Shown: in pieces, positions 1-14,399 of the stretch
Layout: each line of letters starts with the position of its first letter
Position numbering within the stretch: position 1 is the first letter of the stretch
IMG/VR virus record: IMGVR_UViG_2711768167_000007
Coordinates: 1-14,399 of that record
Length of the DNA stretch: 14,399 nt
Direction: 5' to 3' (one strand)
Source: a virus
Lineage: Duplodnaviria > Heunggongvirae > Uroviricota > Caudoviricetes
Notes under the pieces: generated by a model
Seen by the model: only the letters and a program-made list of their open reading frames with translations
Database searches by the model: none
Told to the model about the DNA's origin: nothing
Program-made: the position numbers and the translations under genes

Positions 1-1104
1 ATGAAAAATTTAACAGTGGCACTTTCTGCTGTAGCAGCATCAGTATTTCTGGCAATGTCTGCAAATGCAGCAGAAATATATAATAAAAACAGTAATAAAC
101 TGGATTTATATGGCAAAGTAGGGGGTAAACATTACTTTTCTTCTAACGCCAAAGAAGAAGGTGATGGAACTTATGCCCGTCTTGGATTCAAAGGTGAAAC
201 CCAAATCAACAATCAGTTAACTGGTTTTGGTCAATGGGAATATGAATTCAAAGGCAACAAGGCAGAAAAAGATGGCTCTGCAGGAGACAAAACCCGTCTG
301 GCATACGCTGGCCTGAAACTAGAAAATATTGGCTCTCTGGATTATGGTCGTAACTATGGCGTGGTGTATGACGCATTAAGCTATACTGATGTCCTCCCTG
401 AATTTGGGCCTGGTTCTGTTAACGGGGATAACTTCTTCGTGGGTCGTGTAGGTGGTGTTGCCACTTACCGTAATACCGACTTCTTCGGTCTGGTTGATGG
501 ACTGAACTTTGCGGTTCAGTATCTGGGTAAAAATGAGCGTGACAATGCAGGCACTTCAAACGGCGACGGTGTTGGCGGCTCTGTCAGTTATGAATATGAA
601 GGCTTTGGTTTTGTAGCTGCATATGGTGCAGCCGATCGCACCAATGCACAGGAAGCGACGACTTTTGGTAAAGGTAAAAAAGCTGAACAGTGGGCTACCA
701 GCGTAAAATATGACGCGAATAATCTGTACCTGGCAGCCACTTATGGTGAAACACGTAATACCCGCGCAATCAAGTACTCGCCCGGCGGCTACAACGGTGT
801 AGCCAATAAAACTGAAGATTTCGCTGTAGTTGCACAGTATCAGTTCGACTTTGGTTTGCGCCCGTCTCTTGCTTATATCCAGTCGAAAGCCAAAGACCTT
901 TCCACCAAAACTGGTATCCCTGAAAAACATAATGACGGATACATTGAAAAATTCATTGAAGTCGGTGCTGCTTATTACTTCAACAAAAATATGTCTACAT
1001 ACGTAGACTATAAAATCAACCTGCTTGATAAGAATCAATTCACTGAAAGAACTGATGTATTAACCGATGATATTGTCGCTGTTGGTTTGACTTATCAGTT
1101 CTGA
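1..1104 (+). CDS. Outer-membrane general porin, OmpC/OmpF/PhoE family (prophage-borne NmpC/Lc-like)
   Basis: ATG at position 1. Predicted signal peptide [23 protein letters not shown] then AEIYNK. Conserved porin blocks ([94 protein letters not shown]) and C-terminal ...VGLTYQF with terminal Phe typical of beta-barrel outer-membrane proteins. Position next to Q matches nmpC in DLP12 and lc in PA-2 (recalled). Confidence 0.9.
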
Positions 1105-1248
1105 TTTGTTTTGTAAGAATATGTCGGGAGAGTGAAACTTTTCTGACATATAAAGTGGTGCCCTCATGCCACTGCAAAACGTTGGACAGTACTTAACTTT
1201 TCCAACGGACTTTCTGTTATTTATTACCGTTTTTTGTTGTTTATACTT

Positions 1249-1277
1249 GGGCGCTTTGCGCCCGTTCTTTTATTTAT
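1249..1277 (+). terminator. Candidate rho-independent terminator downstream of the porin gene
   Basis: Perfect GC hairpin GGGCGC-TTT-GCGCCC (1249-1263) followed by T-rich GTTCTTTTATTTAT. On the minus strand the hairpin is followed by an A-rich tract, so it is probably unidirectional. Confidence 0.45.
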
Positions 1278-1287
1278 CCTGTACGCC

Positions 1288-1713
1288 TTATATCCCTGCC
1301 CTGAAGGACGGAGTTTTACGGCACATCGAATAATTTACGCTCACATACCGATCCATCTCAAGTCTTACTCCCAGCATCATCAACATGCCATCAACCACTC
1401 CTTCAGCTTTTTGCAAACGCTTTCCAATATGCGTATCAGAACATCCATGTTTCCTTGCTAACTTCATCAGCGTCATCCCACACACGTAGTAATCAACCAG
1501 CAATTCATGCAAATCACTGTTGTTCCGGTTCAGTTGAGCCATACAACCACAGATAATCATCGCGTCATCATCGGAACACTGCGGTCGCGATTTTACTTTT
1601 GACGGTATCAGCCCCTTGAATCCGGCGGCAATGGATGACCATTCCACGTCTTCGTGGTTATTCGCCACCCATGCCCCCCATCGCTCCATAACCTGCTGAA
1701 TATCACGCGCCAT
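1288..1713 (-). CDS. Late-gene antitermination protein Q-like (DLP12 QuuD-type)
   Basis: N-terminal [35 protein letters not shown]...SRPQC...[14 protein letters not shown] resembles QuuD-type Q proteins as I recall them. The track start at 1722 is a GTG; the first ATG is Met4 at 1713, which fits the family N-terminus better. Lies directly downstream of rusA, as in DLP12. Confidence 0.75.
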
Positions 1714-2074
1714 TGTTACCACCTGTAATTTCGTAAATCTTCACTCCCAGACGCCCGTCAGGTATTGACACGCCACGCACGATATAAATTTCATCAAACT
1801 GTTCGTCATCAATAAGCAGCCCCGCATGGGTCAGCGCATCCAGCGGTACTTTCAGTATGTTGTCCAGGTCACGGCGGCGGTTGTCTGGCGGGTCTGCGAT
1901 GATTTTTATACCCAGTCTTCCGGTCAGCCTTAATCTCAGTTGCTGCTGGCGAACAATAAGCCTGACATCACGACGATAACGTTCCCCCGCTTTTGATACA
2001 AAATACTTACCACCACGACGGTGCCAGTAAGTGTTCACCGGCGGCGGGTAAGGCAAAACAAATTCCAGACGCAT
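1703..2074 (-). CDS. rusA: Holliday-junction resolvase RusA
   Basis: 123 aa. N-terminal [11 protein letters not shown] and the acidic catalytic block [29 protein letters not shown] correspond to RusA (E. coli RusA has DRRRRDLDN...DALT...DD). GGAGG-containing RBS about 6 nt upstream of the ATG at 2074. Overlaps the Q gene start. Confidence 0.85.
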
Positions 2075-2192
2075 CTGTCCCCTCCTTCCACCCAGTCACA
2101 CCTGTTGCAAAAAAGCGTGGCAGAATAGAGAAAAAATTCAGCCATCACGCAGTAAACTCCTTCACCAGTTTTTCAAACTTTCCAGCCCTGCT

Positions 2193-3053
2193 TCATTGCT
2201 CACACTCCCCAACCAGATTGAGTATGACCGCAGCGCTATTGTCTTTCATATATTCGCCCTTTCCGCTTGCCAAAAACCAACGACACACCTCCACGGCTTC
2301 AGCCCGTGTCACCGGTTTGATGGTCATCAGCAATTTTTCAAGGTAGCGCTCGCGGTCATATACCGATTCGTGATGCTCAAAGTAACCAAACTCATCGCCC
2401 TGTTCTTTAGTTGCAGTGTGGCGAACACTGTAGAGCCAGTCCCAGTAAACAAACTCACGAACTACGTCTGACAATGTATGAGGCTCTGGCAGTACATCAC
2501 GATAGCCATCAACATATGCACGACGCTGATCATCAATTTCATTCATACGGATGCCGTCAATTCTGCCCGCTTTCTTCTCGGCTGCAGTCCAGCCCCAGAG
2601 ATGATCGTCGATAAATTTCTGGGAAGACTTGATCACTCGCTCGGCTTCCACATCTTCGAGTGCTGCTTCATAGCTACCAAACGTAGCCCTGACTGATGCT
2701 GCTTTTTTGATATTCTCCCGGGCGATCCTGATTGCCTGTGCCGGGTTATCCATGCCGATGGTACCGAAAGCAATCTGGAAAGGATCGCCACCATTCGCCA
2801 GCAGATAACGCGAATAGCGTTCCTGGGCCTCTTTTGGGGATATTTTAATTTTCACCAGCGCGGCCTCAGCAGCATCCAGATGTGCGGGTTCGTTCAGACG
2901 GATAACCTCCAGTACCCAAAGATAAGCATCAGTCTGCTTATGCCCGGTGATTCTCCGTTGCTCTGGCAGGGGTTTGATGTTTGCGAGGGCGGAGCTGTAC
3001 GCTGCCGTCGGGATGGTGAATAGTGCTTTATGTTCGTTGTTATCAGTACGCAT
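2193..3053 (-). CDS. Hypothetical phage protein (nin-region position), 286 aa
   Basis: Long ORF with ATG start; its start overlaps the stop of the upstream primase-like gene (TAATG). No family recognised by eye. Confidence 0.55.
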   Translation of the reverse strand: MRTDNNEHKALFTIPTAAYSSALANIKPLPEQRRITGHKQTDAYLWVLEVIRLNEPAHLDAAEAALVKIKISPKEAQERYSRYLLANGGDPFQIAFGTIGMDNPAQAIRIARENIKKAASVRATFGSYEAALEDVEAERVIKSSQKFIDDHLWGWTAAEKKAGRIDGIRMNEIDDQRRAYVDGYRDVLPEPHTLSDVVREFVYWDWLYSVRHTATKEQGDEFGYFEHHESVYDRERYLEKLLMTIKPVTRAEAVEVCRWFLASGKGEYMKDNSAAVILNLVGECEQ

Positions 3054-4021
3054 TACGCAGCCGCCTTTTTCTTATGGAAAACCAGCTCCCGAACCTGATC
3101 ACCGTTCATGAGCATATTGTTGAAATCATCGTGATCCGGCCAGTACACGCTCACGCGCTGCAGGTCATTCTTTGCCATCAGATTGGCATGAGCACATTCG
3201 CAAGCCGCAGCCAGCCCGGTGGCGCTGTTCTCGTCACGGTCGGCAAAAATAATCAGGTGCAGAACACCAGCTGGTACGCGGAACTTTTTCATAAAGCCGC
3301 TGTTAATGGTTGCCCAGGTGTTCACGTTATAAATCTGGTGCGCTGACAGCGCTGTTTCGATGCCTTCGGCGATACCCAGAGTGCTGGCGACAGGAAACAT
3401 GCGGATAGCTACAGAACGAGCGTGATCCAGATAGTTATCTTCCTGCAGGGATTTTAGGCGCTTTGCACTGCTACCGATATCTGCTTTTTTATCACCATCA
3501 AGCAGGGTCTGGTGCAGATAGCACAGCTCCCCTTTATCGTCCGTAGCAAGTGAATAAAGAGACTGGAACACACTCCCGTTGTGTCTCTGCCTGGCATTGA
3601 ACCTGATCGCCTCAGCAGGAAGACTGAATATTCCACGAGAATTAAGATACGCGGCGCCGGATGTACCACGCAGTGCCTCCAGTTTTGAAAACTTGCTCAA
3701 TACCCGTTTGCGTAAGCTGGTGGCGCTGCTGGTTACCGGGATTTTAACCCGTTGGTAATTATTACCGATCAGGCGGTCTATTTCGGTACAAATCACGTTA
3801 AATGGCTTCGCCTGTGTCAGGGTGACAAGTTTCATACCATCGCCACTACCACATACACAGATCCACGTTCCTGCACCGTCGCGGTCGTCAATTCGGAACT
3901 TGCCACGTGCACCGCATACCGGGCATTCACCCTTAAAGTGATTTTTTCCGGTTATCGGCGGCAGACCGAAGTGCTCTAATATTTCAGGCCAGCGGCCTTT
4001 CGCTGCATCTGCTGTTTTCAT
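3053..4021 (-). CDS. Primase-like protein with N-terminal zinc-binding motif and Toprim domain
   Basis: CPVCGARGKFRIDDRDGAGTWICVCG zinc-ribbon-like motif near the N-terminus and an acidic Toprim-like block LIIFADRDENSATG. Start lies 2 nt after the helicase stop (translational coupling). Confidence 0.75.
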   Translation of the reverse strand: MKTADAAKGRWPEILEHFGLPPITGKNHFKGECPVCGARGKFRIDDRDGAGTWICVCGSGDGMKLVTLTQAKPFNVICTEIDRLIGNNYQRVKIPVTSSATSLRKRVLSKFSKLEALRGTSGAAYLNSRGIFSLPAEAIRFNARQRHNGSVFQSLYSLATDDKGELCYLHQTLLDGDKKADIGSSAKRLKSLQEDNYLDHARSVAIRMFPVASTLGIAEGIETALSAHQIYNVNTWATINSGFMKKFRVPAGVLHLIIFADRDENSATGLAAACECAHANLMAKNDLQRVSVYWPDHDDFNNMLMNGDQVRELVFHKKKAAA

Positions 4022-4022
4022 C

Positions 4023-5681
4023 TTACTGACTCAGACTGTTTATATTTTTCTGGAGTTGTTGCTTTGCCTGCATAATGCGCCAAGCCTCACTTTCTTCCGG
4101 TGGAACATACCGGCCACCAACAACCAGTGGCAGAGAAAGCACTTCGGATGAGTTTTTCGTCATCCTCCGTGTCCGTTCACGACCTTTAGCAAACCGGATC
4201 AGCTTGTGTCTGATGTAGTTACTTACCTCTGGGCTTATTTCCATCGGGAAACTGCTCAACCCATCAGGCCATTCACCGAATTTCTCCCTGAAAGTGTGAG
4301 CGCACCATCCATCACTGACTGGACGCCCCAGTGAGGCACGCTGGCGCTGATAAAATTTGATCTGACTCCACCAGGCCTGTTTCTCTGCCTTCGTGGACTG
4401 ATGCTGATTTTTACCCAGCTTATTAAGTTTGCGGCTAGTGTCAGTATCAACGTCTTCACCTCGCAGCGGCTTGTGTCCACATTTCGGGCAAACATAGACG
4501 CCAGCTGGCTTCATGTAGTGGCATTGAGGGCATTCATGTGGCAATTTTTCGGCCCGTTCCTCAACTGCGCGGCGCGTGCTTTCCTCCATGCCGTCAGACT
4601 TACCGGGAAGATCGTCGTACTCGATTGAATCCGGATAACCCAGACGGTGCACGGTGCCGCTGTGATCGAAGATAAGGCAGGACGCTTTACCCGGTGCGGT
4701 GCGAAGTCCACGCCCGAGTGCCTGCAACCAGCGAATTTCGCTTTTTGTTGGCCTGGCGTAGATGATGCAACGAACGTCACTATCGAATCCGGCTACCAGA
4801 ACGCCCACACTAACGATGATTTTCGTTGCACCGGTTTCAAAGCGGTGAATGATGGTCTGGCGCTCATCTACCGGAGTGTCGGCGGTCATTACCTCAGCGT
4901 TAACACCCGCCAGGTTAAACTGGATTGTCAGATAATTGGCGTGAGCTACGTTGACGCAGAAAGCGATGGTAGGTAAATCCCGACCATTCTCCAGCCAGTT
5001 CTGTACGATGTCGCCCACCAGCGTAGAGCCGCACATGATTTCAGCCAGCTGCGTTTCGTTGTAATCCCGGCCGTACTCAAGCGAAGATGTGGTTTTAACA
5101 CCTTTCAGATCCGGCTTAGTTGGCGCGTAAAATTCGTATTTACTCAGATCGCCACGCTGGATTAACTCGCCGATGGTGGTCGGCTTAATCAGTCGGTCAT
5201 AGTATTTGCCCAGGAACGGAGAAAACGGAGTACCCGACAGGCCAATCACCTTTACGCCTTTGCCGCGCAGACGTTCGATATCCTTCAGGATGCGTTTTTT
5301 ACGCAGGTGCGCTTCGTCGATAATCAGCAGATCGATATTTTCAGGAAAAACACGACGAATAAGCGTGTCAGCGCTGGCAATCTGAATTTTCCGGTCCGGA
5401 TCGTAGTTCGGGTGATCCGCCCAGATATAACCGATTTCATCTCCAGGTAAACCATACTGCACGAACCGATTAGCCGTCTGACCAATCAGGATGGTGTACG
5501 GAACACAGAACAGAACGCGCATACCACGGCTGACAAAACCAGCAACTATGAAGGCTGCCAGACCCGTTTTACCGCTACCGGTTGGCGAGTACACCATGAA
5601 AGTGTCGTTTGCCTTCCAGTCACGGCGCAACATGTTTAACGCTCGTTCCTGTGCAAAATTCGGCGTGATCGTCAGCTCCAT
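4023..5681 (-). CDS. SF2 (DEAD/DEAH-box type) helicase with C-terminal zinc ribbon; putative replicative helicase of the prophage
   Basis: Walker A VYSPTGSGKTG, motif II LLIIDEAHL, motif III LSGTPF, motif VI QALGRGLR, and CPQC...CPKC zinc ribbon in the C-terminal extension. Occupies the position lambda O/P would take, between the cII-position gene and the nin region. Confidence 0.85.
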   Translation of the reverse strand: MELTITPNFAQERALNMLRRDWKANDTFMVYSPTGSGKTGLAAFIVAGFVSRGMRVLFCVPYTILIGQTANRFVQYGLPGDEIGYIWADHPNYDPDRKIQIASADTLIRRVFPENIDLLIIDEAHLRKKRILKDIERLRGKGVKVIGLSGTPFSPFLGKYYDRLIKPTTIGELIQRGDLSKYEFYAPTKPDLKGVKTTSSLEYGRDYNETQLAEIMCGSTLVGDIVQNWLENGRDLPTIAFCVNVAHANYLTIQFNLAGVNAEVMTADTPVDERQTIIHRFETGATKIIVSVGVLVAGFDSDVRCIIYARPTKSEIRWLQALGRGLRTAPGKASCLIFDHSGTVHRLGYPDSIEYDDLPGKSDGMEESTRRAVEERAEKLPHECPQCHYMKPAGVYVCPKCGHKPLRGEDVDTDTSRKLNKLGKNQHQSTKAEKQAWWSQIKFYQRQRASLGRPVSDGWCAHTFREKFGEWPDGLSSFPMEISPEVSNYIRHKLIRFAKGRERTRRMTKNSSEVLSLPLVVGGRYVPPEESEAWRIMQAKQQLQKNINSLSQ

Positions 5682-6094
5682 TGTGCAGCTCCCGTGCTGA
5701 TGAGATAATAATTTTGTGATGTGGTTTTCATGGATTCCCCCTCACATGGCTGGTGGCCTCCCCAAAGGCTGCCAGCCTCCCTTCTGATTCAGCTCCTCTG
5801 AAAAATCACTCTTCCAGGAAGAATCCTTTTCGTTTCTCAGCGCCTGAGCGCTTTGTACTACCTTGCTGATACGGGCGTTTTTTTAAATTGCGCCCTTAAG
5901 ACAGTGATCTACTTAACCAATGGATCTCTCCTGTTGGAAAAGACCCTATTCCTGCCCCAACACCCAATCCCCCCTTACCCCCCTTACCCTCTTCCCCATA
6001 AAAACGTACTACTTCCCTAGTACACATGAGGAGTTGGGTCAGTTGGTTGCCAACCTGAACAGGCACCTTTAAGCCTGCTTCTGTTCGGGTACCT
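5682..6094. other. Structured 413-bp intergenic region upstream of the helicase gene (candidate promoter and/or replication-origin region)
   Basis: Non-coding gap inside an otherwise tightly packed operon. Contains imperfect direct repeats GGCTGGTGGCCTCCCC (5748-5763) and GGCTGCCAGCCTCCC (5767-5781), a palindrome AGGCTGCCAGCCT (5766-5778), a hairpin GTACTA-N6-TAGTAC (about 6005-6022), a palindrome GGTTGCCAACC (about 6044-6054) and a C-rich tandem-repeat tract. Function is inferred, not shown. Confidence 0.35.
5971..5988. repeat. Tandem 9-mer CCCCTTACC x2 inside a C-rich tract (5955-5997)
   Basis: Direct reading: ccccttacc (5971-5979) immediately followed by ccccttacc (5980-5988), flanked by further C runs. 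The minus strand here is G-rich with at least four G runs. Confidence 0.8.
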
Positions 6095-6403
6095 TTAAAC
6101 CCGAAACAATGAGGAGCGCGATTGCGATCCAGCCAGGGGAGGTTCGGCTGTATACCCCTGTAAAGCTCTGCCCTGATTTCTTACAAACAGGCGGAGCCTT
6201 GTGTTTGCTTCGTGCCTTGCTCTGTTCTCCTTGCGGAATGAAACAGGCTCAGCGTCAAAAGTGATTTCGTATACCTCCGCATATTTCAGGGCAACCTTCC
6301 GTCTCAGTGACGGAGGCAGCCCCTGTAACTGCTGCTGAATCCACTCTTCGTCTGCCTGGCAGTACCTAGATGGCATCTCTGTCTGAACGTAATTCTGGGA
6401 CAT
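6095..6403 (-). CDS. Hypothetical protein at the cII position (possible regulatory protein), 102 aa
   Basis: ATG start 12 nt downstream of the Cro-like gene's stop. Identity not recognised; call rests on position only. Confidence 0.5.
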   Translation of the reverse strand: MSQNYVQTEMPSRYCQADEEWIQQQLQGLPPSLRRKVALKYAEVYEITFDAEPVSFRKENRARHEANTRLRLFVRNQGRALQGYTAEPPLAGSQSRSSLFRV

Positions 6404-6415
6404 ACAAGCCCTTCA

Positions 6416-6688
6416 TCATTCGTTTTTCATAACTGCCGCATTTGTGGCTGTGTGACTTCTACGTAACAAATCAGGGATTGCATCTTCAGGATGGGGATAA
6501 AGATCTGGTCTTAACCCATGAGGAGTAACTTTCCATTCCACAACTTCACATACACGCAAGACGAAACGAGCAGGAATTGTTCTTTTTGAAAACCATTGGT
6601 TCACAGCTTGCGGCGTAACGCCTAGATTTCGCGCTATGGCATTTTGTGCAATTAGCTCACGAAGTGCGTCGTAATCATTTCCTTTCAT
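6416..6688 (-). CDS. Cro-like / YdaS-type helix-turn-helix regulator, 90 aa
   Basis: Small protein with HTH-like segment RNLGVTPQAVNQWFSKRTIPARFVLRV. Transcribed divergently from the CI-like repressor across an operator-bearing intergenic region. Confidence 0.75.
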   Translation of the reverse strand: MKGNDYDALRELIAQNAIARNLGVTPQAVNQWFSKRTIPARFVLRVCEVVEWKVTPHGLRPDLYPHPEDAIPDLLRRSHTATNAAVMKNE

Positions 6689-6822
6689 CGCAACCCACCA
6701 ATCTAAACTTTATAAATTCAAGATTACATCAAGTTTAAATTAACATGCAAGTCCACAAAAGATCGAATACACTAAAATCAAGTAAAAATTTATCGAAACC
6801 AAGTAACCAGCAAGGATTAACA
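6689..6822. promoter_or_regulatory. Divergent immunity promoter/operator region (oR-like) between Cro-like and CI-like genes
   Basis: AT-rich 134-bp gap between divergent HTH genes. ATCAAGT motif at 6728-6734 and 6777-6783; the 13-mer aaatcaagtaaaa (6775-6787) recurs beyond the repressor gene at 7540-7552. Confidence 0.55.
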
Positions 6823-7512
6823 ATGAAAAACTTAAAGAGCACTGAAAATCGAATTACAAAGCTGCTACAGGAGAAAGGCTGGAGCCAAGCAGAGCTGGCC
6901 CGAAAGTTAGGTGTCAGCGCACAGTCCGTACAGTACTGGACAACAGGAAAAACATTTCCAAGGGGAAACCGGCTTGCCCAGTTATCCGAAATAAGTGGTT
7001 ATCCGCAATCGTGGTTTTTAGGAGAAATCACGTCACGGCAGTTCTCTTCAAAGGAAAAACATCAAGCAAGAACTGACAGTGTGGTCTTTAACGTGCTCGA
7101 TGTTGAGTTTAGTTGCGGCGATGGAACACATGTCCGTGGGGACTTTATCGATGTAGTTCGCTCAATCGAGCTTGATCCTGAATATGCCCGTCGCCTTGTT
7201 GGCAATAGAGCATTTCAAAACATAGAGATTGGTAACGCAAGAGGAGATAGTATGGCTCCAACAATAGCCCCAGGAGATCTTCTTTTTCTCGATAAAACAG
7301 TGAATTACTTTGATGGTGATGGCATTTATGCTTTTTGCTTTGATGGTGAATGCTACGTCAAAAGATTACAAAAGATAGGAAGTAAAATCATGGTGTTATC
7401 TGATAACCCAAATTACCAATCCTGGAGCATTGAAAAAGATGCTCTTGAGCTGCTTTATATCCAATCGAAGGTAATATCATCTGTTCCATTCAATATAAAT
7501 AGATTTGGTTAA
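6823..7512 (+). CDS. CI-like prophage repressor (N-terminal HTH-XRE, C-terminal S24 LexA-type peptidase domain)
   Basis: HTH segment GWSQAELARKLGVSAQSVQYWTTGKTFP; S24 catalytic motifs GDSMAPT (Ser) and VKRL (Lys). Start chosen at the ATG at 6823 (RBS AGGA about 6 nt upstream) rather than the track's 6745 ATG, because 6745-6822 carries the operator repeats. Confidence 0.85.
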   Translation: MKNLKSTENRITKLLQEKGWSQAELARKLGVSAQSVQYWTTGKTFPRGNRLAQLSEISGYPQSWFLGEITSRQFSSKEKHQARTDSVVFNVLDVEFSCGDGTHVRGDFIDVVRSIELDPEYARRLVGNRAFQNIEIGNARGDSMAPTIAPGDLLFLDKTVNYFDGDGIYAFCFDGECYVKRLQKIGSKIMVLSDNPNYQSWSIEKDALELLYIQSKVISSVPFNINRFG

Positions 7513-7659
7513 TTATTTATTATTAAAGAAAAAATTTACAAATCAAGTAAAAGAGACGCAGAAATCAATTTTTTCTTGACAACCCCATCAATCAAGATCT
7601 AACATCACACCATCAATTTTAACTTGATTTGTTGTTAATTTTAAATTGATGGTGATTCA
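7513..7659. promoter_or_regulatory. oL/pL-like promoter-operator region driving the plus-strand early operon
   Basis: ATCAAGT at 7542-7548, ATCAAG at 7591-7596 and inverted CTTGAT at 7623-7628. TTGACA at 7576-7581 with TAACAT 18 bp downstream (7600-7605). Perfect 12-bp inverted repeat CACCATCAATTT (7608-7619) / AAATTGATGGTG (7643-7654) overlapping the start region of the next gene. Confidence 0.5.
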
Positions 7660-8088
7660 ATGAAAGATCTGACAACCACTGAGATATCGAACTTAAACCA
7701 CTTCGAAAAAGAATCCTTTGCATTAAATATTGCAAATCTGGTAGGTGCTGCTCGTACTTTCCATTTAATTGATGGTGATCGCTCTAAAGAATTGGGGTTT
7801 GAAGTCATGGAGTTTGTTCATGAATACGCCCTGTCTGCTACTTATCCATTACATAATCACATAATCAACAAACAACCAAATAAAATCCGCACCCAACGCG
7901 AAGCCTGCGGCTTAACAACCGCCGAACTCGCCAGGCTGCTCGATCTCGATGAAGAAATTATCATCCAGTGGGAAAGCGGAGAGTACGAACCAACCATCAG
8001 CATGCTTATCCCTCTGGCTAATGTTCTTGGCTGTGATCCAATGTTGTTATTGACTGATGCTTATAAACAAAATCAGGAGGAAGCATAA
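7660..8088 (+). CDS. HTH-XRE DNA-binding protein with uncharacterised N-terminal domain, 142 aa
   Basis: C-terminal segment IRTQREACGLTTAELARLLDLDEEIIIQWESGEYEPTISMLIPLANVLGCDPMLL is a typical XRE-family HTH; the N-terminal 70 aa are unrecognised. First gene after the oL-like region. Confidence 0.65.
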   Translation: MKDLTTTEISNLNHFEKESFALNIANLVGAARTFHLIDGDRSKELGFEVMEFVHEYALSATYPLHNHIINKQPNKIRTQREACGLTTAELARLLDLDEEIIIQWESGEYEPTISMLIPLANVLGCDPMLLLTDAYKQNQEEA

Positions 8089-8089
8089 G

Positions 8090-8281
8090 ATGAAAATGTT
8101 CAAAGGCCTTACCAACGAACCGGAAACAGCTTTTCATCACATTGCCGTACTGCTTGAAGCGGGGTTAATCATTTCGGCTTCCGGTGATGATGAATGTGAT
8201 GAACTTTCGGATGATATCTTTTTACTGGCACAACAATACGCCAGAAGCGCATGCGATGCATTTAAGGAGCAAAGAACATGA
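8090..8281 (+). CDS. Small acidic hypothetical protein, 63 aa
   Basis: ATG at 8090 is 2 nt after the upstream stop, with AGGAGG 9 nt upstream. Preferred over the track's 8057 start, which overlaps the upstream gene. Rich in Asp/Glu. Confidence 0.5.
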   Translation: MKMFKGLTNEPETAFHHIAVLLEAGLIISASGDDECDELSDDIFLLAQQYARSACDAFKEQRT

Positions 8282-8469
8282 AAACGCCCATGACTATGCT
8301 CGAATATGTAGCCGCAGAAATAAAAGAAAACACGTCAATGCTTGAGTTTATCTTTAAAAATTCGCCCGACTCAGGAGAGTTAGACGATTATTTATGTTGT
8401 CTCATCAGGTCCATGAATAAGACCTGTGAAATGGCTTACGAGTATATAGAAACACTACGTAACGAATAA
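8278..8469 (+). CDS. Small acidic hypothetical protein, 63 aa
   Basis: ATGA start/stop overlap with the preceding gene; AAGGAG 7 nt upstream. Acidic composition. Confidence 0.5.
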   Translation: MKTPMTMLEYVAAEIKENTSMLEFIFKNSPDSGELDDYLCCLIRSMNKTCEMAYEYIETLRNE

Positions 8470-8653
8470 AGAATACTCAATAAAAAATCACACATAAAAA
8501 CATGACGGCCTCTGGTCGGGAGTTTTCACAACCAGAAAATAATGGTGATACATGAAAAATAGAAGCGCTTATAAAACCGCCTTATTAATGGCTAATGCAG
8601 GATACTGGTCAGTTGCAATACTGTTTCTTAGGAAAGCATACGGGAAATAACAA

Positions 8654-9013
8654 ATGGCATATGAAATCATTGGTAAATATCGTCACCGCATAGTCACAAC
8701 AGCATTACAGCGGATGCAACGTAAAACAGGAGGAAATCTTCTCATCGTAAATCTTCCTGACGGAGGGTTAACTACCATCGAAATTACGGAACACTTCATG
8801 ACACAACTGTTATTACGATTTGAAGGTCTTACCCGTGTTGAATTTGGACGGACGGATGGCGAGACCGCAATACTTGCCGCATACCGGAATGCCATCAATA
8901 TTAATCAACACACTGAGTATCTAACTGAATCGGGGAAGTTAATTGTAGACAACCTTTTAAAAGAGGTTGTTGATTACGAAAAAGAAAAATATACCAGTGG
9001 AGGAATTAACTGA
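8654..9013 (+). CDS. Hypothetical protein, 119 aa
   Basis: ATG-initiated ORF after a 184-bp gap; stop overlaps the next ORF's start (TGATG). Confidence 0.5.
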   Translation: MAYEIIGKYRHRIVTTALQRMQRKTGGNLLIVNLPDGGLTTIEITEHFMTQLLLRFEGLTRVEFGRTDGETAILAAYRNAININQHTEYLTESGKLIVDNLLKEVVDYEKEKYTSGGIN

Positions 9014-9222
9014 TGTCTGATTTATCCCCTCTTATACACGAAAAAGTAAATATCGTGCTGACAATCGAGAACGGGAAAGTTATCCACGTGCGCCCGGTTC
9101 AGAACGGCGAGGTTACAGCATCGCTGGAGACTTTTTTATGGATGGCTGAACGCGCCGGTTACACGATCACCCCACCTGCAGGAGAGAAGGACAATGGCCC
9201 TGACAGCGATACGAATTCCTGA
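9013..9222 (+). CDS. Hypothetical protein, 69 aa
   Basis: ATG overlapping the upstream stop. Its 3' end overlaps the 9194 ORF by 29 nt, so one of the two may be shorter or not real. Confidence 0.4.
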   Translation: MSDLSPLIHEKVNIVLTIENGKVIHVRPVQNGEVTASLETFLWMAERAGYTITPPAGEKDNGPDSDTNS

Positions 9223-9415
9223 GCGGGTGCACCTGCAGGCGGTCCGTGTTCTCCGCAAGTTCAGAGCCAGACGAATTCATCCCTGTCGTATGCACGGCTC
9301 CGGAAACCTGAGTCTGAGGGTTAATCGCCGCTGGCGGCTGCTGTCCCGAGACGGCGGCCAGAACTGGGAAGTAATGAGCCATGAACGATACAGCAAAGTT
9401 AAGGACCGGAAATGA
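9194..9415 (+). CDS. Hypothetical arginine-rich small protein, 73 aa
   Basis: ATG at 9194 with GAGAAGGA RBS-like sequence just upstream; strongly basic (many Arg). Overlaps the preceding ORF. Confidence 0.3.
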   Translation: MALTAIRIPERVHLQAVRVLRKFRARRIHPCRMHGSGNLSLRVNRRWRLLSRDGGQNWEVMSHERYSKVKDRK

Positions 9416-9448
9416 ACAATAAACCTTCAAACCAAAAGGAGAGTATTG

Positions 9449-10027
9449 ATGATTAATTCAACCATTACCCCTGAACCTACATTAACAGGCATCCGTTTTG
9501 GTAATCGAATTATTGGTTATTCAACTGCGGTTCGCCAGATCGACAACGGTAACTATGACAAACGAATTCCGGACGGGCTCGATCTGATAGCTTGCATTAT
9601 GGAAGGGATTGAAAGCGGCTGGTTTATGCCGGGTATTGAAAAACAAATCATCCTATGGCGCTGGCTTGTTGTCGCCGTGTTCATTGCTGAGGAGCAGGAG
9701 AAGAACGGGACTGTCGATGTTCAGAATGACAAGGGCGGCGTAGATACAGCCGTTGTATACACAGGAAAACCCGGTTCAATCAGCATTTATCCGTGGTCTG
9801 AGCGCTTCACGCTCGCCAACCATATTGAGGCGGGCGCAATTGAAAAATACGGGCCTGACGTTGGCCAGCAGATGGCGCTGCGTATGTATCAGGACATGGT
9901 TGTAACTGACGAGAAATGCGGATTCAGGCTGTCAGCGATGGGCCAGGAGGGATTCAACATACTACATGACAGCTTCATTGAACTGATTCAGAAAGACGGT
10001 ATGCCAGACATGCCGGTTATGCACTGA
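9449..10027 (+). CDS. Hypothetical protein, about 192 aa
   Basis: The track ORF begins at a TTG (9446); the first ATG is at 9449 with AAAGGAGAG RBS 7 nt upstream. Followed 11 nt later by the next gene. Confidence 0.55.
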   Translation: MINSTITPEPTLTGIRFGNRIIGYSTAVRQIDNGNYDKRIPDGLDLIACIMEGIESGWFMPGIEKQIILWRWLVVAVFIAEEQEKNGTVDVQNDKGGVDTAVVYTGKPGSISIYPWSERFTLANHIEAGAIEKYGPDVGQQMALRMYQDMVVTDEKCGFRLSAMGQEGFNILHDSFIELIQKDGMPDMPVMH

Positions 10028-10038
10028 GGTGGACGAAA

Positions 10039-10788
10039 ATGAACATAGTAACGATCAATAACAAACAGTTTCCGGTAATCGACTATCGCGGTCAGCGCGT
10101 GGTGACGCTGGCGATGATTGATGAAGTGCACCAACGCCCAGACGGAACAGCGGGACGCAATTTCCGCGAAAACAAGTCTCGTCTTATTGAAGGGGAAGAC
10201 TACTTCGAATTAGGTTCCGACGAAATTCGTCGACACCTCCCTGACGGTACTTTCTCAAAATTTGCAGCAGCAGGAATTGTACTGGTCGAATCCGGTTATT
10301 TGATGTTGGTGAAATCCTTCACCGACGATCTGGCCTGGCAGGTTCAGCGCGAACTGGTTAACAGCTACTTCCGCACTCGCGCACCTCTTTCTGAAATCGA
10401 GATGATCGCCGCAATGGCCGCCGATGCCGTTCGCCAGCAGAAGCGCCTGAATCATGTGGAAGAACAGCTCGAAACAGTCACAGAAGCGGTGGAAACCATC
10501 AAACGCGGAAATATGCGCGCCGGATATGTCGGTTATCGCCAGGTGGTCGCCAAAAGCGGAATGACTGATGCTAAGTGCCGCAATCTGGTCAATGCCTACA
10601 GCATCCCAACCGATACGCACGAATTTATGACACCAGATGGTCTTCTTTCGCGCCGGGCTATCGTGGAGCTGGAGCCGTTCATGAAAGCATTTCATCAGAT
10701 GATGTCAGAGGCAGAGCCACGCGGCACACGCTGGTATCACCCGAAGATGGGACTTTTCCAGGTGATCGGATGGGAGGATAAAGCATGA
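10039..10788 (+). CDS. ORF6N/KilA-N-superfamily domain protein (antirepressor-like DNA-binding protein), 249 aa
   Basis: N-terminal segment QRVVTLAMIDEVHQRPDGTAGRNFRENKSRLIEGEDYFEL follows the ORF6N pattern (...RN..RF.eDF.F.L..eE) as I recall it. GAGGTGG RBS upstream. Coupled to neighbours on both sides. Confidence 0.6.
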   Translation: MNIVTINNKQFPVIDYRGQRVVTLAMIDEVHQRPDGTAGRNFRENKSRLIEGEDYFELGSDEIRRHLPDGTFSKFAAAGIVLVESGYLMLVKSFTDDLAWQVQRELVNSYFRTRAPLSEIEMIAAMAADAVRQQKRLNHVEEQLETVTEAVETIKRGNMRAGYVGYRQVVAKSGMTDAKCRNLVNAYSIPTDTHEFMTPDGLLSRRAIVELEPFMKAFHQMMSEAEPRGTRWYHPKMGLFQVIGWEDKA

Positions 10789-11354
10789 TCATCCAGTCAA
10801 AACTTATTCGCGCCGCTCTGGTGTGCGCTGCTAAAAACGACGTTCGTTATTACCTGAACGGTCTTCACATCACGCCGAAACATATTGAGGCAACCAATGG
10901 TTGCGTGGCACTGCGCATGGCTCACGGCATCCGGACGAAGAAAAACATCATTGTCCAGTTCGAAGGGGGCGTACCGGCCAAAGCCGAAACGACAGAGCTG
11001 ATTTTTAGTAAAGAGCCGATCGCTGTTCATCGCGACCAGTTTCAGCGACGACTGTCCATTACCGGCATAAAACTGGTGGACGGTTGTTTTCCGGATTTGG
11101 ATCGCATCATTCCGAAAAAGTTTGACCGCTGTACTCATCCGGTGATCCAGGCGGGTTACCTGAGTTATCCAGAGAAGATGTTTGGTCGTGAGCGTAAATT
11201 TATTCCCGTCCAGTTACGTCCCTCCGGTGACGGGCAAGCGGTCAGAATTCAGTTTGATTCCATCATCAACTCAATGTATGGCAATCCTGAATTTGTTGTG
11301 ATGCCTTGTCGTGATTATGGCGATTTCAACGTGGCTCAGGAGCATCCGGAATGA
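10785..11354 (+). CDS. Shortened beta-sliding-clamp (DnaN)-like protein, 189 aa
   Basis: Motif-level matches to E. coli DnaN recalled from memory: NDVRYYLNG vs QDVRYYLNG (start of DnaN domain II), KLVDGCFPDLDRIIPK vs KLVDGRFPDYRRVLPK (end of domain II), C-terminal EFVVMPCR vs AYVVMPMRL. ATGA overlap with the upstream gene; GGGAGGA RBS. Confidence 0.6.
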   Translation: MIIQSKLIRAALVCAAKNDVRYYLNGLHITPKHIEATNGCVALRMAHGIRTKKNIIVQFEGGVPAKAETTELIFSKEPIAVHRDQFQRRLSITGIKLVDGCFPDLDRIIPKKFDRCTHPVIQAGYLSYPEKMFGRERKFIPVQLRPSGDGQAVRIQFDSIINSMYGNPEFVVMPCRDYGDFNVAQEHPE

Positions 11355-11575
11355 AAATCGAATACCAGGACTATGGCGCCGTAGCGAACATCGTGATCAC
11401 CAGTTCCCGCCTGACATTGCAAAAGCATAACCGCGTTGTTGATGCGGTGCTGTTTAATGTACAGGGGATCTATGAAAACCGCAGCGGCTTTTTCTGGGTT
11501 AAGTCATCGTTGTCAGGAAAAACACGCGACATCCTGCGCGCCTACAAAATCGTACAGCGGGAGGCAAAGCGATGA
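11351..11575 (+). CDS. Hypothetical protein, 74 aa
   Basis: ATGA-coupled to the upstream gene, with CAGGAGC RBS-like sequence. Confidence 0.45.
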   Translation: MKIEYQDYGAVANIVITSSRLTLQKHNRVVDAVLFNVQGIYENRSGFFWVKSSLSGKTRDILRAYKIVQREAKR

Positions 11576-11667
11576 AGTCATTCCTCCTGTCCATGCTGTT
11601 TGGTCTGCTGCTGGCGTCCGTCGTTTTCGGTGCGCTGATTGAATATAAATTTTTAATGAATTACTGA
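11572..11667 (+). CDS. Candidate small hydrophobic (single-TM-like) peptide, 31 aa
   Basis: Not in the ORF track (too short). ATG at 11572 overlaps the upstream stop (ATGA). Translation MKSFLLSMLFGLLLASVVFGALIEYKFLMNY is dominated by a hydrophobic stretch. Confidence 0.3.
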   Translation: MKSFLLSMLFGLLLASVVFGALIEYKFLMNY

Positions 11668-11675
11668 GGTGCGGA

Positions 11676-12305
11676 ATGAGCAAGATCAAAAACCCAGTTG
11701 TACTTATCCATAAACGAGAAAATAGTGACTCCTACGCCGTTGCAATCACCTGCGGTAGCCAGAACTATCACGACGCCGTTCTGATGGCGTCGATGGAACT
11801 GGATATGAGTGACGATGATGTCGATACCTGGAGTAAAACCGGCTACTACATGGCTCAAGAAATCGAGCGACTTAAACAAGCGCTGTCCGCTGCGGAAAAT
11901 AATTTGATTGATTCCGAATGCCTCGTCGCTGAATTAAGCAAAGCAAAGAATCACGCATATGGGCTGGTCGACACATACGACTGGCAACGTCAGCGTCTCC
12001 ACGCAGCCGCAGAGAAAGTCATCAAATGGTGCAGACAAGAAGCTGAACACCGTACCGGCGACCCAGAGAAAGCAGAAAACTATGCGTGTGTTAAAGAACT
12101 ACGCGACGCATTAACTTTTTGCAAAAGTTCTGAAGGCAGCAAGAAGAAAGGCCTGACCATCACCCTGCCCGATATCACATCAAAGGCATTCTGGAGCGGT
12201 ACCGGAAAAAACGCAAAATTCCATCCGGAAACCTATAAACGCTGGGTGAAAGAAGCTGTCAAACGGGATTGTGTTATTGCCGGGATCGGCGTGGAGGTGA
12301 AATGA
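11676..12305 (+). CDS. Hypothetical protein, 209 aa
   Basis: ATG with GAGGTG RBS. No family recognised; occupies the region where lambda carries ea-type accessory genes. Confidence 0.55.
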   Translation: MSKIKNPVVLIHKRENSDSYAVAITCGSQNYHDAVLMASMELDMSDDDVDTWSKTGYYMAQEIERLKQALSAAENNLIDSECLVAELSKAKNHAYGLVDTYDWQRQRLHAAAEKVIKWCRQEAEHRTGDPEKAENYACVKELRDALTFCKSSEGSKKKGLTITLPDITSKAFWSGTGKNAKFHPETYKRWVKEAVKRDCVIAGIGVEVK

Positions 12306-12388
12306 TGAATTGGCCTGAAGCATTCACCGCAGTAGGAGTTGCAATAGCGGTGGCATTTATTCTGTATTCGCTTTTCCGCTGGGGATAA
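12302..12388 (+). CDS. Candidate small hydrophobic peptide, 28 aa
   Basis: Not in the ORF track. ATG at 12302 overlaps the upstream stop (ATGA). Translation MMNWPEAFTAVGVAIAVAFILYSLFRWG has one hydrophobic helix-length segment. Confidence 0.3.
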   Translation: MMNWPEAFTAVGVAIAVAFILYSLFRWG

Positions 12389-12392
12389 AGGA

Positions 12393-12635
12393 ATGTTCGC
12401 TCTGATTCAACGTGGTCAGATATACACCGATAGTGCTGGCTACCCGGTAAAAATTATTCGCTGCATAAACAACACTGTGTTGTACAGAAGAATGGATGGG
12501 AGAACACAGTCGGTAAAAATAAACGATTTCAATGAACTGTTTGAACGGATTGATCACCAGGAATACCGACAAATTCTGGCAGAAACAGAGCAGGAAGCTC
12601 ATCTGAAAAAATTACGGGCCATGAAAAGGAAGTAA
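12393..12635 (+). CDS. Hypothetical small protein, 80 aa
   Basis: ATG with AAGGA RBS 3 nt upstream. Basic C-terminus. No family recognised. Confidence 0.5.
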   Translation: MFALIQRGQIYTDSAGYPVKIIRCINNTVLYRRMDGRTQSVKINDFNELFERIDHQEYRQILAETEQEAHLKKLRAMKRK

Positions 12636-12638
12636 AGA

Positions 12639-12785
12639 ATGAATAAAGCATTTGAACTATGGGTGCGCCAGCGTTATGGCAATCGCTATGACCTGACGCG
12701 AGATGTTGACGGTTTCTACTGTCGTGAAATTGTGAAACGAATGTTTGAAGTGTGGTGCCACTGCCGTGGGCTGAGTGTTGTGTGA
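12639..12785 (+). CDS. Hypothetical small protein, 48 aa
   Basis: Not in the ORF track. ATG at 12639 with AAAAGGAAG upstream; translation MNKAFELWVRQRYGNRYDLTRDVDGFYCREIVKRMFEVWCHCRGLSVV. Confidence 0.35.
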   Translation: MNKAFELWVRQRYGNRYDLTRDVDGFYCREIVKRMFEVWCHCRGLSVV

Positions 12786-12793
12786 GGTAATGC

Positions 12794-13030
12794 ATGGGCA
12801 ATGTGATTCAACTGGCTCCCAATGAATGGGTTTGTGAAAGCGTTCTAATCGCAATTACCGGGCTCAAACCAGGCACAATTCTTCGGGCCCGAAAAGAATG
12901 CTGGATGGTTGGAAGAGAGTATATTCACGTATCACCAGACGGTAATCCAAAGCCTTCCAGTGAATGTATGTATAACAGAAAAGCAATAGATGCCTGGGTC
13001 GCTTCAATGAAAAACAAACAACCTGGGTGA
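12794..13030 (+). CDS. Excisionase-like protein (putative Xis)
   Basis: 78-aa protein immediately upstream of the integrase on the same strand. The segment GLKPGTILRARKECWMVGREYIHVSPDGNPKPSSECMYNRKAIDAWV resembles the putative-excisionase family of enterobacterial prophages as I recall it. Confidence 0.6.
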   Translation: MGNVIQLAPNEWVCESVLIAITGLKPGTILRARKECWMVGREYIHVSPDGNPKPSSECMYNRKAIDAWVASMKNKQPG

Positions 13031-13085
13031 TTTAATGCCATGAAGTATGTAAGCTCGTATCGCTCTTGGGCGTCTGGAGGTATCA

Positions 13086-14399
13086 ATGGATAAAGTCAAA
13101 TATCCAACAGGCGTCGAAAACCACGGCGGCACATTACGCATCTGGTTTAATTTTAAAGGTAAACGTGTCAGGGAAAATCTTGGTGTCCCTGACACTGCCA
13201 AGAACAGGAAAATCGCCGGGGAACTGCGGACATCGGTATGTTTTGCCATCCGCACAGGAAGCTTTGATTATGCTGCACAGTTCCCTGACTCCCCTAACCT
13301 TCAGGCTTTTGGGGTAAGTAAAAAAGAAATTACGGTGAAGGAACTTGAAGAAAAGTGGCTGGATCTGAAACGAATGGAGATCTCTGCAAATGCATTCAAT
13401 CGCTATGAATCCGTTGCAAGAACGATGGTTCCGAAAATTGGAGGCAGCAGACTGGTGTCATCGGTAACTAAAGAGGAATTGCTGTATATCAGGAAAGATT
13501 TGCTGACCGGGTACCAGAATTCAACGAAAAACAAAGCAGCAGCAAAAGGACGGAGCGTCGTTACTGTAAATTATTACATGACGACAATCGCTGGAATGTT
13601 TCAGTTTGCTGCAGATCACGGTTACTTAGAAGCAAATCCCTTCCAGGGAATTAAGCCTCTTAAAAGAGCCAGGGCAGAGCCAGATCCGCTAACTCGTGAC
13701 GAATTTATTCGCCTGATAGATGCTTGCCGACATCAGCAGACGAAAAACCTGTGGTCATTGGCTGTGTACACAGGAATGCGTCACGGTGAACTGGTCTCCC
13801 TGGCCTGGGAAGATATCGATCTGAAAGCAGGAACTATTACTATCAGGCGCAATTATACGAAACTCGGTGAGTTCACTCTACCTAAAACTGAAGCAAGTAC
13901 AAACAGGGTTGTGCATCTTATCCAGCCCGCTATCAGTGTCCTGAAAAATCAGGCTGAAATGACAAGACTGGGTAAGCAGCACCACATCAAGGTTCAACTA
14001 CGTGAATATGGGCGTTCAGTGAATCATGAATGTACTTTCGTATTTAACCCCCAGGTGGTTAGAAAAAGCAAACAGGTCGGTTTTATCTACAAGGTAGATT
14101 CTATTGGCGACTCATGGGAAACAGCCATTAAGCGTGCGGGCATCAGGCACCGGAAAGCATACCAGTCACGACACACTTATGCGTGCTGGTCATTATCTGC
14201 CGGAGCAAATCCAAGCTTCATTGCCAGCCAGATGGGCCATGCAAGTGCCCAGATGGTGTTCAATGTATACGGAGCATGGATGACTGACAGTAATGCAGAA
14301 CAGATCGCAATGCTGAATCAGAAGCTGGCAGATTATGTCCCAATGATGTCCCATGGTCACCAAAGTGACACAAGAGACTTATTAAAATCAGTGGGTTAG
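13086..14399 (+). CDS. Tyrosine site-specific integrase (phage integrase family)
   Basis: GGAGG RBS 5 nt upstream of the ATG. N-terminal arm-binding-type region (PTGVENHGGTLRIWFNFKGKRVRE), catalytic-domain motifs RHGELVSLAWEDIDL, SRHTYACW (box II R/H) and GHASAQMVFNVYGAW (His and Tyr nucleophile region). Stop codon is the last three bases of the window. Confidence 0.9.
   Translation: MDKVKYPTGVENHGGTLRIWFNFKGKRVRENLGVPDTAKNRKIAGELRTSVCFAIRTGSFDYAAQFPDSPNLQAFGVSKKEITVKELEEKWLDLKRMEISANAFNRYESVARTMVPKIGGSRLVSSVTKEELLYIRKDLLTGYQNSTKNKAAAKGRSVVTVNYYMTTIAGMFQFAADHGYLEANPFQGIKPLKRARAEPDPLTRDEFIRLIDACRHQQTKNLWSLAVYTGMRHGELVSLAWEDIDLKAGTITIRRNYTKLGEFTLPKTEASTNRVVHLIQPAISVLKNQAEMTRLGKQHHIKVQLREYGRSVNHECTFVFNPQVVRKSKQVGFIYKVDSIGDSWETAIKRAGIRHRKAYQSRHTYACWSLSAGANPSFIASQMGHASAQMVFNVYGAWMTDSNAEQIAMLNQKLADYVPMMSHGHQSDTRDLLKSVG

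Follow-up and report, generated by a model that had tools for sequence, protein, structure and literature searches.

What would a temperate phage do with about half of a bacterial sliding clamp? The DNA considered here (hereafter the window) comprises 14,399 nucleotides, positions 1 to 14,399 of the IMG/VR virus record IMGVR_UViG_2711768167_000007 (Caudoviricetes), and covers the immunity and early region of a lambdoid prophage. At positions 10785-11354 it encodes a 189-residue protein (hereafter the short clamp) that an earlier note, made from the sequence alone, had likened to the β sliding clamp DnaN. The β clamp is a hub that coordinates polymerases, clamp loader, mismatch repair and initiation control, and is an antibiotic target. 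The short clamp is a genuine but diverged DnaN homologue: it departs from DnaN in its architecture, in its scores against curated thresholds and in the dimer interface, and agrees with it in fold and in the cleft to which clamp-binding proteins dock.

Retained and missing parts of DnaN

The gene and its product are laid out as follows.

10785..11354, + strand: short β-clamp gene, 189 residues; domain II-like part, residues 1 to ~113; part like the second half of domain III, residues ~114-177; disordered tail, residues 178-189

Database evidence from the lone sequence is only marginal, because the Pfam, TIGRFAM and Protein Data Bank (PDB) scores are all weak: PF02767 gives E=0.008 and 16.9 bits against a gathering cut-off of 27, TIGR00663 gives 21.1 bits against a cut-off of 137.65, and β clamps in the PDB are matched at E~0.002. 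A Pfam scan returned no match to PF00712 or PF02768. A profile of 32 homologues reaches E. coli β at E=4e-20, and all 40 of its PDB matches are β clamps. The three blocks on which the earlier note had based the likeness proved correct against the fetched E. coli K-12 dnaN: NDVRYYLNG corresponds to QDVRYYLNG (DnaN 149-157), KLVDGCFPDLDRIIPK to KLVDGRFPDYRRVLPK (DnaN 235-250) and EFVVMPCR to AYVVMPMR (DnaN 358-365). The profile search and the fold prediction that it had proposed as checks both came out in its favour, the predicted monomer being confident, half domain included, and showing the β-α-β-β-β repeats of the clamp architecture.

A hidden Markov model (HMM) of 206 family members, a sample dominated by enterobacterial phages, was scored against pieces of E. 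coli DnaN, with these results.

Artificial DnaN(125-253 + 312-366): 93.5 bits
Full-length DnaN: 85.1 bits
Domain II plus first half of domain III: 71.2 bits
Domain II alone: 64.2 bits
Second half of domain III alone: 20.8 bits
First half of domain III alone: 2.7 bits
Domain I: -3.2 bits

Because of these scores the short clamp is seen to consist of domain II and the second half of domain III only, corresponding to DnaN 136-253 and 312-365. Its C-terminal ~65 residues match DnaN 312-366, and DnaN 254-311, the first half of domain III, is deleted. The earlier description of a half-length protein without domain I and with a compressed domain III is thereby sharpened. The three equal domains that make up a single DnaN chain of ~366 residues are not found in these 189. 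Within domain II, the second inner helix (DnaN 197-208) gives way to a predicted loop with a highly conserved proline and a short strand.

The deletion also bears on oligomeric state. Residues I272 and L273 have a role in the head-to-tail dimer interface of DnaN (review PMC11139829), and they fall inside the segment that is absent from the short clamp. Both contributors to the interface, domain I and the domain III segment with I272/L273, are missing, and the short clamp is therefore not expected to form a canonical β ring. The charge is altered too. The short clamp has an isoelectric point (pI) of 9.1 and a net charge of +6, and the family as a whole is basic (median pI 8.7, with 66% of members above 8), compared with an acidic 5.25 for E. 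coli DnaN and 5.4 for the matching piece of DnaN. Purifying selection acts on the gene, the median ratio of non-synonymous to synonymous substitution rates (dN/dS) being 0.095 over 35 pairs.

Set beside bacterial DnaN (E. coli β, 366 residues, acidic; PDB 1MMI/2POL), the short clamp is thus a basic, phage-encoded protein of an accessory operon, lacking domain I, the first half of domain III and both sides of the dimer interface, and with the second helix of domain II replaced. Its nearest architectural analogue is E. coli β*, a 26-kDa product, inducible by UV, that arises from an internal start in dnaN and is reported (Skaliter, Paz-Elizur and Livneh, 1996) to behave as a trimer that can act as a processivity clamp. 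Both are natural shortened clamps that begin near the start of domain II and lack domain I, but β* retains the whole of domain III, whereas the short clamp has 1.5 domains and so cannot tile a six-domain ring as β* would. The trimeric clamps of the T4 gp45 and PCNA type and the full-length DnaN homologues of phages are complete rings whose genes usually accompany those of a clamp loader and a polymerase; the short clamp is a 1.5-domain fragment with neither. The non-ring processivity factors of herpesviruses, either monomeric (UL42) or C-shaped dimers (UL44, PF-8 and BMRF1), are the nearest analogues in likely mode of action, although they have two full domains and no specific sequence relationship to the short clamp, which is clearly derived from DnaN. 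Twort gp168, Caulobacter SocB and the lambda PreS small RNA would share with it a target, the host clamp interaction network, but these act on β itself, by binding or regulation, whereas the short clamp mimics part of β. The gp168 structure (PDB 7EVP) is among the matches.

Conservation of the docking cleft

Clamp-binding motifs of the Q-L-x-L-F type, carried by polymerases, the clamp-loader subunit δ, Hda and MutS/MutL, are received by a cleft on β, both subsites of which are bridged by His175. Eighteen residues form the two subsites of this pocket (review PMC11139829). All 18 map to columns of the short-clamp family and lie in the retained parts, within the following segments.

10836..10862, + strand: NDVRYYLNG, residues 18-26 (DnaN 149-157); cleft residues R21 (R152) and L24 (L155), with R 98% and L 97% conserved (n=148)
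10893..10910, + strand: TNGCVA, residues 37-42 (DnaN 172-177, TDGHRL); cleft positions T172, G174, H175 (Cys), R176 (Val) and L177 (Ala)
11070..11117, + strand: KLVDGCFPDLDRIIPK, residues 96-111, the connector of domains II and III (DnaN 235-250); cleft residues P103 (P242), R107 (R246) and I108 (V247)
11148..11159, + strand: Q122-Y125, C-terminal helix (DnaN N320-Y323), cleft subsite II; in the family, N 73% and Y 89%
11289..11312, + strand: EFVVMPCR, residues 169-176 (DnaN 358-365); cleft positions V360, M362, P363, M364 (Cys) and R365

Conservation was measured in 148 family members filtered to <60% identity. Mean entropy is 1.25 bits in the cleft columns and 2.74 bits in the other columns (Mann-Whitney p=5.6e-7), a strikingly positive outcome for a check that the earlier note had suggested: the cleft supplies the best conserved columns of the family. 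The top five, G174, P242, R152, L155 and M362 in DnaN numbering, all carry the residue of E. coli β, and T172, P363, Y323, H175 and R365 are also within the 25 most conserved. This conservation is selective, so the docking pocket is precisely what the family has kept.

The degree of likeness differs between clades. In the fetched loci of lytic-phage members the 18 cleft positions read RLTGHRAPRVNYTVMPMR, against RLTGHRLPRVNYVVMPMR in β, which amounts to 16 identities out of 18 at ~25% overall identity. The short clamp at 10785-11354 shares 11 of the 18 (R152, L155, T172, G174, P242, R246, Y323, V360, M362, P363 and R365), and the string for the prophage clade is RLTG[H/S/F/C/Y]VAPR[V/I]QYxVMPCR; the cleft of its clade is somewhat more diverged than that of the lytic-phage clade. 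At codon 40 (10902-10904), the H175 position, copies that are 96-98% identical (loci L013-L092) differ from one another and the remaining cleft is fixed, a pattern that relaxed or diversifying selection on a single ligand-contacting residue could explain.

Family, partner genes and prophage setting

An exhaustive profile search gave 3,649 cluster representatives at E<=1e-10, a number that rises to 15,418 at the looser E<=1e-3. Among the best 150 representatives, ~140 have 170-214 residues and the others are shorter fragments of 87-159; the best matches form at least 150 clusters at 50% identity, and relatives number thousands in all. When a second search was started from distant members, 5,733 proteins came up at E<=1e-5, and the best 120 of these are all stand-alone proteins of 158-236 residues, with no domain fusion among them. 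The 282-residue P0015 is a mere read-through into a downstream coiled-coil gene and not a fusion. A length of ~180 residues is kept across clades that share just 25-35% identity, and BFVD holds many phage proteins of 160-270 residues with the same fold (TM 0.7-0.81). One BFVD entry, A0A6J7W9M3_1, is a 1,394-residue protein of an uncultured phage annotated with a 'large polyvalent protein-associated domain'; a region of it matches the short-clamp model (TMq 0.52, E=2e-5) and is possibly the sole fusion context seen for a clamp-like module.

By tblastn the gene was found in 210 sequenced phage genomes, mostly from phages of Salmonella, Escherichia, Klebsiella and Vibrio and also of Burkholderia, Acinetobacter and Proteus. 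It is present in 61 of 5,426 complete E. coli genomes (about 1%) and on only 12 of 72,556 plasmids. In E. coli it has recently been named 'beta clamp domain-containing protein' by the Prokaryotic Genome Annotation Pipeline (PGAP), several distant relatives are automatically named 'DNA polymerase III beta subunit', and the old record of Burkholderia phage Bcep781 has 'DNA Pol III b subunit fragment'. Full-text searches of the literature turned up neither functional nor structural work on short phage clamps, only genome annotations of this kind and a table entry in PMC5463345. The novelty is lower than the earlier note implied, the family being present in hundreds of phages and already auto-annotated as β clamp. 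What appear to be undescribed in the searchable literature are the set of β parts kept, the selective conservation of the cleft, the inversion of charge and the strict three-gene module, with its swappable DNA-binding head, described below.

Other labels have been attached to the family. The short clamp matches phrog_3007 over its full length (E=1.5e-64), and this family is labelled 'RusA-like Holliday junction resolvase'. Such an identity was rejected: there is no PF05866 match at E<=10, the fold is that of a clamp, and the genuine RusA of the prophage lies elsewhere (1703-2074). The wrong label has spread to GenBank and RefSeq phage records, for example those of Bas79, Bcep781 and VLCpiS13a. 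A defence-system identity was likewise rejected, as no PADLOC-DB defence-system model matched the short clamp or its two partners.

These partners flank the short clamp in the window.

10039..10788, + strand: upstream partner, 249 residues; ORF6N domain at residues 13-93, helical linker, and C-domain at residues ~111-249 (phrog_6610), assigned by Pfam and PHROG
11351..11575, + strand: downstream partner, 74 residues, phrog_1001; its start shares 4 nt with the end of the clamp gene

The upstream partner likewise shares 4 nt with the clamp gene, its stop lying across the clamp start. Open reading frames (ORFs) were called in 77 closely related viral loci by a simple longest-ORF rule, as in all fetched loci; the ORF6N gene occupies -1 in 63 of them and the 74-residue gene +1 in 54, and the outer flanks are variable. 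Across 237 clamp loci there are 108 ORFs with homologues of the phrog_6610-type C-domain, directly upstream of the clamp in 107 of the 107 that can be scored; homologues of the 74-residue protein are at +1 of the clamp gene in all 98 occurrences. The N-domain of the upstream partner, which belongs to PHROG 'anti-repressor' families, is exchanged (ORF6N, Rha-like or Bro-N-like), and its C-domain, ending in an invariant RWxHPxxGxF, is constant. The same trio occurs in Providencia phage PSTCR3 with a clamp just ~32% identical.

Could the neighbours supply the missing pieces of the clamp? A 'split clamp' of this kind was rejected at sequence level: the 74-residue family resembles neither DnaN (hhalign probability 0.1%) nor any chain in the PDB, and the profile of the upstream partner matched no PDB chain. 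An AlphaFold2 model of the upstream partner reached a predicted local distance difference test (pLDDT) score of 49.5. The tail of this protein (...HPKMGLF...) resembles the AMSLF of δ and is a weak candidate for a clamp-binding motif, judged by sequence. Covariation between tail type and cleft residues was also considered and set aside; the differences track clade structure and are not interpretable.

Members outside the enterobacterial-prophage clade lack both partners and have other neighbours. In the neighbourhood sample, which comprises 29 clamp lineages after dereplication at 70% identity, the neighbours in other lineages are genes for an SF2 helicase, ParB-like proteins, Dam methylase, SSB and replication proteins. 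In Dhillonvirus Bas14 (Escherichia phage TheodorHerzl, L002 5971-6489) and in Bcep781 (L007 4998-5579) a lone clamp gene lies on the opposite strand within the head-gene cluster. In both of these unrelated lytic phages its neighbours are capsid/protease genes to one side and portal/spanin genes to the other; such a moron-like position suggests a promoter and a timing of its own. Elsewhere the clamp gene abuts a DNA methyltransferase gene, either Dam-type or a large modification methylase (L012 6001-7043, L006 4995-6290 and genes 1-2 of Erythrobacter phage vB_EliS-R6L). Adjacency of this kind in Vibrio phage PVP-XSN, in the metagenomic locus L012 and in an Erythrobacter phage had pointed to a clamp for the methylase. 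It recurs in unrelated phages, but as a general partnership it was rejected, with a methylase at +1 in just 2 of the 29 dereplicated loci.

The prophage itself is nearly identical to one in E. coli TUM1886, which is integrated beside yecE. The minus strand carries Q, RusA and a 286-residue ORF, genes for a toprim primase and an SF2 helicase, a cII-like gene and cro. The plus strand has a LexA-like cI (helix-turn-helix (HTH) plus S24), followed by small ORFs as far as excisionase and integrase. Two features bear on expression of the short clamp.

6823..7512, + strand: cI-type repressor (HTH plus S24 peptidase, LexA-like), from Pfam; start as annotated by PGAP in the TUM1886 prophage
7538..7654, + strand: putative oL/pL, with TTGACA-18-TAACAT (7576-7605) and flanking ATCAAGT/ACTTGAT-type repeats, from consensus and repeat matches only

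Repeats of the same type recur in the cro-cI intergenic region (6713-6793). The longest ORF for cI begins at 6745, and the TUM1886-annotated start is at 6823; the shorter form is favoured because the operator-like repeats at 6713-6793 partly overlap the additional portion of the longer ORF (6745-6822). This cI probably controls the short-clamp operon. The 'repressor-controlled early operon' of the earlier note is accordingly plausible, given the repressor gene, the promoter-like site, the repeats and the same-strand ORFs as far as xis and int. No polymerase gene is found in the window.

Several other features of the region were noted. The genuine RusA gene (PF05866, E=2e-14; 1703-2074, - strand) lies between Q and the 286-residue ORF; the TUM1886 prophage has no RusA there and has instead a single HTH protein, together with a NUMOD4 homing-endonuclease-like gene beside the helicase, and the difference at the RusA site looks like a mosaic replacement. 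A 73-residue ORF at 9194-9415 (+ strand) has a ParE-like toxin domain (PF24732, E=3e-19) and overlaps the end of a 69-residue ORF (9013-9222). A complete OmpC/NmpC-type porin gene at 1-1104 (+ strand; PF00267, E=7e-127), situated between the Q antiterminator and the lysis genes, is likely a lysogenic-conversion gene.

Possible recruitment or sequestration of clamp-binding proteins

If the short clamp forms no β ring, what is its cleft for? The reading that we favour, and hold tentatively, is that it is a non-ring, loader-independent docking or adaptor module for clamp-binding proteins on phage DNA. Neither encirclement nor a loader is proposed, because the ring-interface parts have been lost and the acidic character of β has been swapped for a basic one. 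The protein, which we infer to be monomeric or otherwise non-ring, would neither encircle DNA nor need a clamp loader; it would be held on phage DNA via its basic surface and, in the prophage clade, also via the co-translated ORF6N-type partner and the 74-residue protein. The conserved cleft would bind motif peptides and recruit host replication and repair proteins, or phage proteins with the same motif, and these would be brought, soon after induction, to intermediates of phage replication or recombination. An adaptor of this kind is supported by linkage to genes for DNA binding and DNA metabolism. There are precedents for phages acting on or through the clamp: the lambda PreS small RNA raises translation of host dnaN to aid phage replication (bioRxiv 10.1101/2024.10.31.621285), and Mu and T4 use clamps for late transcription.

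A number of observations weigh against this docking role. The cleft residues are the most conserved in DnaN generally, and their conservation may be partly structural. In the short clamp at 10785-11354, four of the cleft changes are non-trivial (H175->C, R176->V, L177->A and M364->C), and the equivalent of H175 is polymorphic (H, S, F, C or Y) within the prophage clade. The KMGLF of the partner tail reads EFGGF (...HPEFGGF...) in a sister clade. Matches to clamp-binding motifs occur in three prophage proteins (RusA, orf119 and the integrase), which is about the chance expectation and no enrichment. The gene is in the accessory leftward operon, not adjoining the helicase-primase replication module of the prophage, and the lone placement in head-gene clusters would suit a host-directed 'moron' no less than a replication accessory. 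A Pol I is encoded by some carriers themselves, Dhillonvirus among them, so recruitment of host Pol III cannot be a universal role.

The main rival turns the direction of action around. As a decoy or sponge, a free cleft fragment would compete with host β for clamp-binding proteins (δ, Pol III α and ε, the SOS polymerases II, IV and V, Hda and MutS/MutL), and host replication, translesion synthesis, mismatch repair or DnaA inactivation would be inhibited or rewired for the benefit of the phage. The near-identity of the cleft to that of host β supports adaptor and decoy alike, and for the latter it is a reason to see the host's own clamp partners as the ligands. A decoy also fits the loss of the ring interface. 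Monomeric β (I272A/L273A) binds δ far more tightly than the ring does, and a host-directed gene is consistent with the solitary, moron-like position on the opposite strand in lytic phages. Control by a LexA-like repressor points the same way, as the protein would be made while SOS polymerases are abundant. However, a pure decoy has no obvious need for a large shift to basic pI, nor for a dedicated partner, translated along with it, in which the DNA-binding domain has been exchanged repeatedly. It would also draw off the Pol III on which a prophage without a polymerase of its own depends for replication. In favour of the adaptor are the shift in charge and the dedicated DNA-binding partner, and sequestration is on this evidence somewhat less likely than docking, though it is the alternative to be taken most seriously. 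The evidence leans towards DNA-associated docking, by recruitment rather than sequestration, and away from the pure exclusion that the earlier note had listed beside a decoy and a processivity factor.

The remaining explanations fare less well. An unconventional processivity factor would tether a phage Pol I-type polymerase or host Pol III through the cleft, either as a DNA-binding monomer, in the manner of herpes simplex virus UL42, or with the half domains III of two subunits paired in a C-shaped dimer like human cytomegalovirus UL44 or in a higher-order ring. This is improbable: the predicted monomer is already confident with its half domain, replacement of the second inner helix of domain II by a proline-containing loop and strand leaves fewer DNA-facing helices, and the window holds no polymerase gene. 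Less probable again, and proposed by analogy, is a transcriptional or regulatory cofactor that would act with the antirepressor-like ORF6N protein. The 'anti-repressor' PHROG families of the upstream partner, with ORF6N, Rha or Bro-N domains, speak for it, and T4 gp45 and Mu MuC, which use clamps for late transcription, are precedents for clamp-dependent phage transcription (PMC12867686, PMC2988020). Nevertheless, the partner is limited to one clade, the short clamp is far more widespread and stands there among DNA-metabolism genes, and there is no sign of RNA polymerase contact. Scarcely any credence attaches to the last pair of candidates, a non-functional remnant of a captured host dnaN, as the half-length, fragment-like look might have it, or the RusA-like resolvase of the phrog_3007 label and the GenBank records that copy it. 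A dN/dS of ~0.1, a length of ~180 residues conserved across clades and retention of the gene in compact lytic genomes exclude a dead fragment, and the clamp fold, the absence of a RusA Pfam match and the presence of a real RusA at 1703-2074 exclude the nuclease.

With rather more reserve than the docking role itself, we suggest that short clamps are a widespread and distinct phage class, a ring-less minimal copy of the cleft that would tap or jam the clamp-binding network without a loader; in enterobacterial prophages this would take the form of a DNA-targeted three-protein complex with an interchangeable ORF6N, Rha or Bro-N head and a 74-residue subunit. One practical consequence is that the propagating 'RusA-like resolvase' mis-annotation is corrected. 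If the cleft binds the same motifs as that of β, these 20-kDa proteins would be natural minimal receptors for clamp-binding motifs, of use as probes or inhibitors, and would help to show how temperate phages that lack a polymerase recruit host enzymes of replication or repair. That a large phage family apparently keeps only the docking cleft of such a hub suggests a simple means by which phages may hijack or inhibit it.

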